Notes under the pieces: generated by a model
Seen by the model: the letters and a program-made list of their open reading frames with translations, nothing else
The model's database searches: none
Told to the model about the DNA's origin: nothing
Made by a program: the position numbers and the translations under genes
IMG/VR virus record: IMGVR_UViG_3300041809_000977
From: a virus
Direction: 5' to 3' (one strand)
DNA length: 12,227 bases
In this document: one piece after another, positions 7,241 through 10,167 of the stretch
Layout: each line of letters starts with the position of its first letter
Numbering within the stretch: position 1 is the stretch's first letter

Positions 7241-9709
7241 TTACTTCGCCGACGCGGCCTTGGAGCGGTTGTTGATGTTGTTCAGAATGGGTTCAACGAC
7301 AGAGCCCTTGAACACCCGTTCCATAACTGCGCTGGTGCTCGTCTGCTCAATGATAGCCAGCGGAGCAAAGGCAGCGGTGAGGCGAGTGATGGTCTCGTTG
7401 TCGCCCAGTGTCTGCATCGCCTGAATCAGGTTCGGAGCGAGTGCAGCCATCTTCTTCTCGAAGAGGGCAACACGGGCCTGTTCCAGTGTCAGTTCTTGGT
7501 CGGAGAGCATCTTCGTGCGGTTGAACTCAGCGGTCGCCACAGCGTTGTGCTGTTCCTGCTCTGCGACTTGTGCGTCCAAACGGGCGACGGCTTCTGCAAT
7601 CTCGGCTTCGATTTCAGCCATGGTGGCCTTAGCTTCCGCCTCGGTCGTCAGCATTGCCAGTTCCTGCTTGTAGACATTCACGTCAGTGTTCAGCTTGGCA
7701 ATCTCCTTGTCAATCTCCGTCTTGCGGCGGGTGTTGGCAAGCTTCTGCTCGTCTGATGCCAGCGTGATGGCGGTTTCAACTGCGCTCGTCGTGGCGTTGT
7801 CCAGCAACCGTGCGATGCCGCTGTGAGTATCGGCAATCTTCACGCTGAGAACTTCCACGTCGTACACGTCCATGCCATTCTCTGCGAAGAAGCGGTGACG
7901 GGCTTCCGTCCCTTCCTTCTTGCCGAGGACAACATCGCGGATGAGTGTCGCCGAGTCCTTCATGATGGCAGTGACGCTGTGCTTCTTGAGGGAACCCTTG
8001 AGCAGTGAACGCATGTGGTCGCACAGGTACTTGACATAGTTCTCGACGGAGAACCACTTGTCCGAGTGCTCACGCAGGAAGTTCACGCGGTAGGAAACCT
8101 TCACATCGACGTTGACCAAATCGTCCGTCTCAACGCGAACGGTGTCCGATACGAGGTTGTGGTCAACCCGCAGGTACACGTCACGGTGGAGGGTGTCAGT
8201 GGTCTTCGGCTTGCCGGTGCTCAGTTCGAGCATCTCAAGCGTCTCGTCATACGCCAGCAGGATGGTCGTCGGGCCGATTTCAACGCGACGGTTGCCTGAC
8301 TTGTCCACAACCTGCACCGCATAGCCAGTCCAAACGCTGATGGCAGGTACGCCGTCATACTTGGAACCGAGCGTAATCATCGGCGGAGGAGTGAACTTGG
8401 TGCCACGGGACAGACGGTCACCTTCGTAGCCAGCGGCTGCTGCCGGTTCGGAGAACGACTTGCTCTTCGTCAGACCACGGTTCATGCTGCGACCGATGTC
8501 TGCTGCTGCGGCAATCACCGTGTTCTCTGCGAGGTAGTTCGAAGACGGGTCTTCGTTCAACGCACGGAGAGACTGGTTGAATGTCAGAGCATCAACGCTT
8601 GTGGGGAACCACAGGTTGACGGTCTTGTCGTCCAGCACACGGCGGACAATGACTTCGTTGCGAGGGTCGGGCAAGAAGATTTGCGGGCCTTCGACCAGCT
8701 TAATCTTGCCTTCGCTCTTGTCGAGCACGTAACGGGCTTCGCCGGTCGGGATGGTAATCCCATAGTAGCGTTCCCGCTTGAAGTTCGACTTCGGGTCGTC
8801 ATAGCCGATGAGGGCGTGTTCCGCACGGGGGTAGTAGAAACGCTGTTCCTTGCCCGTGATGAAGAGTTCCTCGCCAGCGGTGTGCTTGGTGCCCTTCTCG
8901 TCGGTGTAGTCGGCTGTGACCTTGACGTAAACACCCATCTGGTCATTGAGTTCAATGGCCTTCAGCTTGCGGGTGCTCTTGCCGCCGTCGTTGTCCTTGG
9001 TAACGAAGTGCTCCGTTGCCTCGGGGAACACGACCTGAGGACCGCGCTCGAAACGCTTGTTGCCGTCTTCGTCCAACAGGATGCAGTATTCCAACCGCTC
9101 CAGCGTGAGGGCTTCACGCACGTAGCTGTCGTTTTCCTGCAACACTTCAAAGCCGGTCGGCGGGATGAAGAACGAGGACTCGGTGCCCTTGATAACAAGC
9201 AACTGTCCCGGCGTGAACTTGCCGTCGGAACCAGCAGCCTTCGACTTCAAGGACTCGGTTGCGTTCTTGTTCGCCTCGTCGGCGTTGTACACGCGGACCA
9301 CGAGGTACTGGTTCGAACGAAGGTGGTGCCCAGTGATGACTTGTGCATACTGTCCGGGCCACAGAGCAAGAGAAATCGGACCGGGAATGACAATTTTCCG
9401 CCCAATTTGCAGTTGTGTTGGGCTGTTGGAACCGGGCGTGGGCGTCTTGAGTTCCCCCTTGTCATTGACTGAAGGATTCTCCAAAACAAGATAGTGTCCC
9501 TCAGGTACGAAAGCATTCTGAGTGATAGCTTTCTGAACGTCGGTATACGTGAAAACATCCCGAGTCTTGTCGTAGATGACAGGACGGTCGTTTCCAGAAA
9601 GTGAAAAGGAGTAGGGTCCTGCACAAACTGCCACCGTGCCCTTGGTTGCGTCTTGCAAGAAAGCATATTCCTTCTGCGAAAGGCAGAGTTGAGCCGTAGG
9701 TTCCGCCAT
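7241..9709 (-). CDS. major vault protein (MVP) homologue, 823 aa
   Basis: ATG 9709..9707 with GGAGGG 7 nt upstream. The track start 9757 is GTG. The architecture is collinear with eukaryotic MVP over the full length.
- N-terminal vault repeats, e.g. GVYVKVTADYTDEKGTKHTAGEELFITGKEQRFYYP, compared with the MVP pattern D.DG.KR.AGEEWL..GPG.Y.P.
- Shoulder region: AVQVVDKSGNRRVEIGPTTILLAYDETLEMLELSTGKPK against human [40 protein letters not shown].
- Shoulder region: LVSDTVRVETDDLVNVDVKVSYRVNFLR against [28 protein letters not shown].
- Ala/Glu-rich C-terminal coiled coil (cap helix).
The human sequence is recalled from memory. Confidence 0.8.
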   Translation of the reverse strand: MAEPTAQLCLSQKEYAFLQDATKGTVAVCAGPYSFSLSGNDRPVIYDKTRDVFTYTDVQKAITQNAFVPEGHYLVLENPSVNDKGELKTPTPGSNSPTQLQIGRKIVIPGPISLALWPGQYAQVITGHHLRSNQYLVVRVYNADEANKNATESLKSKAAGSDGKFTPGQLLVIKGTESSFFIPPTGFEVLQENDSYVREALTLERLEYCILLDEDGNKRFERGPQVVFPEATEHFVTKDNDGGKSTRKLKAIELNDQMGVYVKVTADYTDEKGTKHTAGEELFITGKEQRFYYPRAEHALIGYDDPKSNFKRERYYGITIPTGEARYVLDKSEGKIKLVEGPQIFLPDPRNEVIVRRVLDDKTVNLWFPTSVDALTFNQSLRALNEDPSSNYLAENTVIAAAADIGRSMNRGLTKSKSFSEPAAAAGYEGDRLSRGTKFTPPPMITLGSKYDGVPAISVWTGYAVQVVDKSGNRRVEIGPTTILLAYDETLEMLELSTGKPKTTDTLHRDVYLRVDHNLVSDTVRVETDDLVNVDVKVSYRVNFLREHSDKWFSVENYVKYLCDHMRSLLKGSLKKHSVTAIMKDSATLIRDVVLGKKEGTEARHRFFAENGMDVYDVEVLSVKIADTHSGIARLLDNATTSAVETAITLASDEQKLANTRRKTEIDKEIAKLNTDVNVYKQELAMLTTEAEAKATMAEIEAEIAEAVARLDAQVAEQEQHNAVATAEFNRTKMLSDQELTLEQARVALFEKKMAALAPNLIQAMQTLGDNETITRLTAAFAPLAIIEQTSTSAVMERVFKGSVVEPILNNINNRSKAASAK

Positions 9710-10167
9710 ATTTTTCCCTCCGTGTGTTCTGTTGCGATTGCTGTCATGACCTTCCACTCCGGGTTACCGTAATCCGGCTGGTTGAAGTCGTAGAAAGAGT
9801 GTGTCTCCACCCCCGCCTTGTAGAGCAGGTTGAGTACGTGGTATAGCTCATAGCTGTCACGAGCACTGAGTACAATAGTTGTGATTGGAACGAACGCAGT
9901 CGTCTCTTCCCACGTCAGTGGGTTTTTCTTCCCCGCCTTCGCTACTTTGTATAGTAGCTTCGCCAACATCGCCGTGCGAGTCTTGCTCACCACGTGTGCG
10001 GCTTGAGCAATGAGGCGACCGGCTGGTTGAACGATAGTCCGTGTCCTCTCATCCCCAACCACTTTGGCAACGTTGTGAGCAGTGGTAGGGTTCCACACGA
10101 CAGCGGTGGTCGTGGGTGCCTGAACCGTCTGAGCGACGACGCAATAGATGCGTTTCTCCTCCGCCAT
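9247..10167 (-). CDS. PTH2-family peptidyl-tRNA hydrolase domain protein. The conserved domain lies in ~9700..10167. The ORF has no stop until 9247 and overlaps the MVP gene out of frame.
   Basis: ATG 10167..10165 with TGGAG 8 nt upstream, 2 nt after the stop of the upstream gene. It matches the PTH2 fold against human PTRH2:
- PAGRLIAQAAHVV against GKGKVAAQCSHAAV.
- TTIVLSARDSYELYHVLNLLYKAGV against [24 protein letters not shown].
- VMTAIATEHTEGKIWRNLRL against [23 protein letters not shown].
Homology ends at ~9691, but the frame stays open for ~150 further R/S/T-rich codons. Confidence 0.55.
   Translation of the reverse strand: MAEEKRIYCVVAQTVQAPTTTAVVWNPTTAHNVAKVVGDERTRTIVQPAGRLIAQAAHVVSKTRTAMLAKLLYKVAKAGKKNPLTWEETTAFVPITTIVLSARDSYELYHVLNLLYKAGVETHSFYDFNQPDYGNPEWKVMTAIATEHTEGKIWRNLRLNSAFRRRNMLSCKTQPRARWQFVQDPTPFHFLETTVLSSTTRLGMFSRIPTFRKLSLRMLSYLRDTILFWRILQSMTRGNSRRPRPVPTAQHNCKLGGKLSFPVRFLLLCGPDSMHKSSLGTTFVRTSTSWSACTTPTRRTRTQPSP

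Follow-up and report, generated by a model that had tools for sequence, protein, structure and literature searches.

The window analysed here is a stretch of 12,227 nucleotides of viral DNA (IMG/VR virus record IMGVR_UViG_3300041809_000977) whose minus strand encodes a protein resembling the peptidyl-tRNA hydrolase PTH2 and, downstream of it, a major vault protein (MVP) homologue. The first of the two genes starts with an ATG at position 10167 and reads as a single open reading frame (ORF) of 306 codons (306 aa). No stop codon is found after its PTH2-like part; the frame passes the MVP ATG at 9709 and covers 153 MVP codons in another register, to a stop at 9247. A preliminary description, made from the letters of the sequence, had noted that this ORF lacks a stop and runs about 150 codons into the MVP gene, and that its R/S/T-rich tail is MVP read out of frame. 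Both points are borne out (ORF 10167..9247; tail 9709..9247, first stop at codon 153). The codons at the junction are, in the PTH2-like frame, ACA GAA CAC ACG GAG (9720) GGA AAA ATA TGG. They include the heptamer G_GGA_AAA at 9718-9712 on the minus strand, which the read-through frame divides in the X_XXY_YYZ manner (ORF index 449; 449 mod 3 = 2). A −1 slip at this heptamer reads G-K-N-M-A-E-P..., i.e., ...TEGKN-MAEP..., and leads into the MVP frame a single codon ahead of the ATG, so that the PTH2-G-K-N-MVP fusion described earlier is indeed what the sequence would give. The same bases double as the Shine-Dalgarno (SD) sequence of MVP, as had also been recognized: GGAGGG is found at 9721-9716, 6 nt 5′ of the ATG, at the position expected for such an element. 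Three explanations had been offered for the missing stop, namely a real long out-of-frame overlap, a lost stop or indel, and programmed frameshifting.

The product of the downstream gene matches the Pfam domains MVP_shoulder (1.9e-23, 83.2 bits; cutoff 25) and Vault_3 (2.4e-10, 40.8 bits; cutoff 28.8), is identical to a database protein (P0030) named “major vault protein” by JGI, and is 72% identical over residues 7-822 to the MVP of L001, one of the related metagenome loci used for comparison (designated by L numbers). The initiation codon at 9709-9707 was set by homology to the amino-termini of the L001-L004 proteins (MADIQGQ.../MPDIQGQ...).

The PTH2-like family and the end of the window copy

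The PTH2-like protein of the window matches the Pfam profile PF01981 below the gathering score (E = 0.0068, 17 bits; cutoff 23), with residues 48-127 aligned to profile positions 14-81 of 115. A database search identified 29 homologues with a length of 168-215 aa, 11 of which have precomputed PF01981 matches. The AlphaFold model of one of them (P0001) has a predicted local distance difference test (pLDDT) value of 87.7. Its top 14 Foldseek matches in the PDB are PTH2/Bit1 structures, and those to 1q7s, 2zv3, 3erj and 1xty have a probability of 1.0 and target-normalised TM-scores of 0.70-0.76. Because of these Pfam matches (11/29) and of the PTH2/Bit1 structures that head the list for the model, “PTH2-like” is a fair label for the predicted fold of the family. 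For the window protein itself the label is weakly supported by sequence, and a PDB sequence search with its PTH2-like part returned a spurious nanobody match alone (E = 0.93). The modelled fold of the family matches that of PTH2/Bit1 (PF01981), with weak Pfam matches, but sequence identity is only 12-15% and the family model has an extra N-terminal β-hairpin region and a longer inserted helix. The window copy differs further in that it is without the last ~20 residues of the domain, and its peptidyl-tRNA hydrolase activity is putative.

In the alignment all 29 homologues end in ...ATEPVxPxxVxGILDYLPLW(K/S)P-stop, a C-terminal block in which five columns (G, I, D, L, L) are invariant. The window sequence diverges from the family directly after ...TAIATE, the last shared base being 9726 (codon 147/148), and the PVxPxxVxGILDYLPLW block (~20 residues) is absent from all three frames of the window. 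The missing block belongs to the PTH2 domain, since the full-length L001 protein, which also scores 17 bits against PF01981, covers profile positions 14-112 of 115. Judged from these alignments the PTH2-like domain of the window is incomplete, being truncated at its C-terminus. The preliminary description had followed the similarity to ...EGKIWRNLRL and taken this for the normal end of a PTH2 protein. That view has to be abandoned: homology stops at ...TAIATE, the invariant block is gone, and HTEGKIWRNLRL is the MVP 5′ leader with the first MVP codons read out of frame, not a PTH2 C-terminus. The possibility that GKIWRNLRL is a degenerate GILDYLPLW was considered and rejected. It is encoded by the SD, spacer and ATG region of MVP, and the resemblance is coincidental because the encoding DNA matches, except for one G in a run of G, DNA of the related locus L007 that does not code for PTH2. 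In the AlphaFold model of the window protein, residues 151-164 have a pLDDT of ~50.

Comparison with related loci and origin of the 306-codon ORF

The nearest relative of the window is L007, a peat-metagenome contig of 1177 nt. Its positions 1-238 correspond to the window up to 9726 and its sequence from 972 onward corresponds to the window from 9725 onward (feature coordinates are listed in Table 1). The 733 nt found between these flanks in L007 are missing from the window, and the breakpoints share just the dinucleotide AC. From the MVP ATG the two sequences are identical in 189/189 nt, while all 26 mismatches of the left flank, which matches the window up to 9726, are found in one patch (L007 positions 111-199). 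The distance between junction and ATG is 734 nt shorter in the window, which corresponds to the 733 nt and one G: the L007 leader is ...ACACGGAGGGGAAAAAT-ATG and that of the window is the same minus one G, the retained leader being ACACGGAGGG(G)AAAAAT with four G in L007 and three in the window. The extra 733 nt of L007 comprise the PTH2-like 3′ terminus (PVNPEEVVGILDYLPLWKP-stop), an ORF on the reverse strand, and the spacer to 16 nt before the MVP ATG. That ORF (205-225 aa) found no match in a Pfam search, while PHROGs assigned it to the HNH endonucleases (phrog_2255; 7e-9). Read from a GTG start it spans positions 294-971 and ends just upstream of the leader that matches the 16 nt kept in the window. 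The leader stretch that includes the heptamer is non-coding in L007 on the strand of the PTH2-like and MVP genes.

The patch of mismatches (26 in 89 nt; window ~9853-9765) lies inside the PTH2-like gene; on its two sides window and L007 agree perfectly over 110 nt and 39 nt. Found beside the HNH insertion site, it looks from the sequence like a recombination or gene-conversion (co-conversion) tract.

A PTH2-like gene is encoded directly upstream of MVP in L001/L006, L002, L003, L004, L007, L009/L010, L026, L031/L032 and L033-L035, whose MVPs include some that are 83% (L031/L032) and 80% (L033-L035) identical to that of the window. In all nine relative lineages with DNA the PTH2-like gene finishes with the conserved block and a stop codon, and 68-691 nt of spacer separate it from MVP. 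Alignment of orthologous loci had been proposed as a check of whether a stop follows the domain elsewhere, and such a stop is found in every locus examined. Empty spacers measure 68-130 nt whereas the long ones hold an inserted gene. The spacer of L004 codes for an HNH protein that shares 45% identity with the one of L007 (E = 2e-38), the two genes having the same position and direction, and L009 has there an unrelated 146-aa ORF. The HNH gene is absent from L001, L002, L003, L026, L031 and L033, which have short empty spacers. The contig of P0031 (gene calls only; MVP 87% identical) encodes, in this order, a 170-aa protein, a 204-aa protein on the reverse strand and MVP, and its spacer probably also contains a free-standing HNH gene on the opposite strand.

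This distribution resembles the polymorphism of free-standing HNH homing-endonuclease genes between phage genes, where such a gene is present or absent and its loss may be imprecise: a reverse-strand HNH gene is present in the spacer of L007 and L004 and missing in the window and six relatives, and a mosaic patch of 26 mismatches adjoins the site in otherwise identical DNA. It differs in that the window is no clean endonuclease-free allele, as the loss also took in the entire spacer and ~60 nt at the end of the gene upstream. Two further free-standing nuclease genes are found within the 12 kb of the window, at 489-1229 and 2636-3328 (both on the plus strand), one matching the HNH/endonuclease VII-like phrog_3322 (8e-25) and the other Pfam Endonuclease_7 (4e-18). 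This richness in homing-endonuclease-like genes fits insertion/loss variation at the MVP spacer, and the PTH2-like/MVP spacer is a hot spot for gain and loss of HNH endonuclease genes.

Short spacers usually carry a TTGCA...GTAGTA-type motif. The window has none upstream of its MVP gene and no clear copy at any other place, and scanning positions 9500-12227 for the sigma-70 consensus revealed no promoter. The promoter-like motif recurs in empty PTH2-like/MVP spacers of the relatives as CTTGCA(A)-N~13-17-(T)GTAGTA(A/G)GT (L001 ~1000-1030, L002 ~780-815, L003 ~965-1000, L031 ~2420-2455, L033 ~2425-2455).

The 306-codon ORF is very probably the scar of a recent illegitimate deletion. The ancestral layout would have been a PTH2-like gene of ~155-215 aa ending in ...GILDYLPLW(K/S)P-stop, a spacer, and MVP, and in some lineages (L007, L004, probably P0031) a free-standing HNH homing-endonuclease gene would lie in the spacer on the opposite strand. 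An L007-like genome would have given rise to the window when 733 bp were lost by illegitimate deletion at 2 nt of microhomology. A lost stop or indel, the second of the explanations offered earlier, is in this sense the right one: the event would have removed the last ~20 (conserved) PTH2-like codons with their stop, the whole HNH gene, and the promoter-bearing intergenic spacer to 16 nt before the MVP ATG. The truncated frame, left without a stop, would then cross the SD, the spacer and the ATG of MVP and continue in a non-MVP register to the stop at 9247, this register having probably been free of stops already before the deletion. The heptamer G_GGA_AAA would be the ribosome-binding region of MVP (GGAGGG followed by AAAAAT), landing by chance in the X_XXY_YYZ register. 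MVP is presumably still made from its own SD and ATG, its transcription now probably comes from read-through, and what is left of the PTH2-like gene most likely represents an allele that is non-functional or crippled and ends in a junk tail. The event is of an ordinary, already known kind. An ORF that seems to be without a stop at the end of its domain is in fact without the end of the domain, and this is visible solely by comparison with relatives.

The first stop of the tail register is found at codon 18 in L001, L002, L003 and L033, at codon 36 in L026, at codon 44 in L009 and at codon 107 in L031, early stops thus being present in 7 of the 8 relative lineages readable that far. In L004, whose MVP 5′ DNA is the closest to that of the window, no stop interrupts the register before the homologous one at codon 153; the L004 PTH2-like gene ends 645 nt upstream and no upstream gene reads into this register. 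Because the frame is equally open in L004 with nothing reading into it, the sequences indicate that it is older than the deletion and is not kept by selection. Further along the window MVP, this alternative frame has two more runs without stops, of 94 and 125 codons. The real long out-of-frame overlap of the preliminary description amounts to no more than the open frame itself: the early stops in relatives speak against it, and a conserved overlapping gene in the tail register was rejected for these stops.

Table 1. Features of the PTH2-like/MVP junction in the window (positions of the 12,227-nt stretch)
Feature	Position	Strand	Basis or remark
PTH2-like gene remnant, codons 1-148	9724..10167	-	29-homologue alignment; DNA alignments with L001 and L007; flank comparison; PF01981
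Probable deletion junction, ambiguous within the 2-nt AC microhomology	9725..9728	-	733 nt missing relative to L007
Retained 16 nt of the MVP 5′ leader, ACACGGAGGGAAAAAT	9710..9725	-	Shine-Dalgarno 9721-9716 and A-rich spacer 9715-9710
G_GGA_AAA heptamer, part of the MVP Shine-Dalgarno and spacer	9712..9718	-	sequence reading, register check
Out-of-frame read-through tail, last ~154 codons of the 306-aa ORF	9247..9709	-	MVP in another register
MVP homologue, 822 aa, own SD and ATG	7241..9709	-	Pfam, homology

Fusion, assembly artefact and frameshifting as alternatives

Several observations weigh against an explanation by deletion and a dead remnant. The deletion is defined by L007 alone, one near-identical relative of 1177 nt. 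AlphaFold gives a confident core for residues 1-150 of the window protein, so that the loss of function is a presumed one. G_GGA_AAA does act as a shift motif in bacteria, although a weak one, and is used by a few insertion sequences (PMC4066793); low-level adventitious slippage at it is conceivable. Finally, the out-of-frame state rests on one base of a homopolymer run because GGGG in place of GGG gives an uninterrupted ORF: with one G added, the window has a single PTH2ΔC-MVP ORF of 975 codons that reads ...ATEHTEGKNMAEPTAQ....

It is conceivable, if quite unlikely, that GGGG is the true sequence and that the GGG of the window is a homopolymer miscount or a minority variant. The deletion would then have created a real in-frame fusion in which a TEGKN linker joins PTH2-like residues 1-148 to MVP, and native MVP might also arise by internal initiation at the retained SD and ATG. 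The presence of GGAGGGGAAAAAT in L007, identical to the window in 189/189 nt downstream, and the single ORF of 975 codons obtained by inserting a G are in favor of such a fusion. The MVP N-terminus of eukaryotic vaults faces the lumen at the particle waist and N-terminal fusions are tolerable in principle, which also counts for it. On the other hand, the genes for MVP (822 aa), the ATP-grasp protein (325 aa) and a 213-aa protein (99.5% identical to L020) are intact, without signs of homopolymer frameshift errors, and the G-run of the ribosome-binding site (RBS) is GGG in L001, L002 and L003 and GGGG in L004 and L007. The GGG of the window is judged likely to be real because the other large genes are intact and because GGG is the commoner state in the RBS of relatives. 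The database matches listed include neither a PTH2-like protein as large as MVP nor an MVP with an N-terminal extension, and the fused domain would be without its invariant C-terminal block.

A junction created during assembly or library preparation (a chimeric join, the real genome being L007-like) is likewise improbable. The window is a single metagenome contig, L007- and L020-type fragments of the same population are present in related peat metagenomes, and no second junction of the window type was found, the exact 37-mer of the junction having 0 matches in IMG/VR. Exact contig-index look-ups with three window proteins also returned none, a result that is uninformative as MVP is in the protein database (P0030). 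Against an artefact, the join has just 2 nt of microhomology while mis-joining by a k-mer-graph assembler would require that a k-mer be shared. Collinearity and orientation are otherwise preserved in both flanks, as in a simple deletion, and the presence or absence of the endonuclease and of other small genes at the spacer is real among relatives.

It is very unlikely that a fusion of the form ...ATEHTEGKN-MAEPTAQ... is made by way of a GGG/GGGG polymorphism or of low-level slippage, some shell subunits then carrying a lumen-facing N-terminal cargo domain. If true, this would be a natural, recently evolved case of a phage in which gene fusion or recoding serves to load cargo into vaults.

The third explanation offered in the preliminary description was a programmed −1 frameshift at G_GGA_AAA that yields a regulated minor PTH2-MVP fusion and places the enzyme inside a vault-like shell. 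We consider it extremely unlikely. The heptamer is in the correct register for a slip into the MVP frame one codon before the ATG, G_GG.A_AA.A is among the frameshift motifs of insertion sequence (IS) elements (PMC4066793), and the conserved PTH2-like/MVP gene pair suggests some functional link. The zero-frame register of the heptamer and a −1 frame that is a long ORF are shared with dnaX, IS3/IS911 orfAB and the phage tail chaperone G/GT. The window differs from these systems by having neither a downstream hairpin or pseudoknot nor a correctly spaced upstream SD, by a motif and an overlap that are conserved in no relative, and by a downstream ORF that is provided with an SD and ATG of its own and stands as a separate gene everywhere else. 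Eight in-frame X_XXY_YYZ heptamers are found in the 3473 codons of the window ORFs, 1/256 per codon being expected, and the motif by itself is not significant. Among relatives the heptamer is found in L007 only, where it already exists as a non-coding MVP RBS, and the arrangement found in the window, with stop and spacer present in every relative, is unique to it and would result from the recent deletion.

The signals that accompany programmed frameshifting were looked for around the heptamer. No RNA structure was detected 3′ of it, the z value versus shuffles being +0.40 over 90 nt and −0.12 over 50 nt. In dnaX, −1 shifts are stimulated by an SD-like element placed 10-14 nt upstream; the corresponding segment of the window (CAACAGAACACAC) has no SD-like run, and the sole GGAGG overlaps the motif. 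Earlier work found G_GG.A_AA.A, which is present in a few IS elements, inefficient in E. coli, as noted by Sharma et al. 2014 (PMC4066793). Without stimulators, shift motifs reach at most ~10-fold over a background of ~0.07%, and G-rich motifs may serve as SDs for initiation in the −1 frame (PMC4066793). The PTH2-like domain that would be fused is, moreover, truncated. A profile of the PTH2-like family picked out 312 representatives among 1.84 billion. The best 150 have 101-362 aa and include no fusion, and with few exceptions the match stops no more than a few residues short of their C-terminal end. Full-length matches among the best 120 MVP homologues have 799-902 aa, versus ~975 aa expected of a fusion. 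With stops in all orthologous loci examined and a heptamer that is not conserved as coding sequence, which is the outcome that the preliminary description had itself named as refuting, and with no RNA structure, programmed frameshifting is unsupported: the recoding signal does not hold up and the locus is no frameshift candidate. Transcriptional slippage was also considered, and the short runs (G3, A5) make it unlikely.

The gene block around MVP

The window MVP resembles the prokaryotic and phage MVP homologues described before (bioRxiv 10.1101/872010; 10.1101/2023.11.10.566534), which have ~820 aa with Vault_3 and MVP_shoulder domains and are encoded in phage-like contigs. No mention of a hydrolase was found in these two reports, and the PTH2-like neighbour appears not to be discussed there. 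MVP homologues are abundant in metagenomes (6595 proteins at E ≤ 1e-30 among 8000 candidates scored) and many are encoded on contigs of 100-894 kb, which are possibly from very large phages or cellular genomes. No match was found by megablast of window positions 7200-10900 against GenBank phages, nor for an exact 40-mer of the MVP 5′ end in GTDB genomes.

The minus-strand segment 7241-12129 of the window is a gene block composed of a 79-aa gene, an ATP-grasp gene of the R2K_3 type (325 aa; PF14243, 5e-12), a 213-aa gene (phrog_23621), the PTH2-like gene and MVP. It is kept in the diverged metagenome lineages L004, L009/L010 and L026 and in the P0031 contig. A Ku-domain gene (PF02735) is found ~2 kb upstream of MVP in L031 (1-459) and L033 (1-229), whose MVPs are 80-83% identical to that of the window. 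On the other side of MVP, L001 has a 167-aa gene (phrog_16275) in the interval between MVP and the next conserved gene (L001 3641-4434), and the window has none at 7130-7240, a further case of presence versus absence. The 160-aa ORF at window positions 6647-7129 probably starts further in, near MKPDNTEQ..., as suggested by its L001 homologue. A 148-aa protein of the phrog_2072 group (8e-41), whose function is not known, is encoded at 3279-3725 on the minus strand and is kept in L001, L017, L018 and L025 (the latter from a 463-kb contig).

The PTH2-like gene adjoins MVP on its upstream side in about ten related lineages from peat and other metagenomes. That a PTH2-fold protein and an R2K ATP-grasp so regularly accompany the vault homologue hints at a functional module, and the conserved PTH2-like/MVP pair provides a lead on the possible roles of phage-encoded vault-like proteins.

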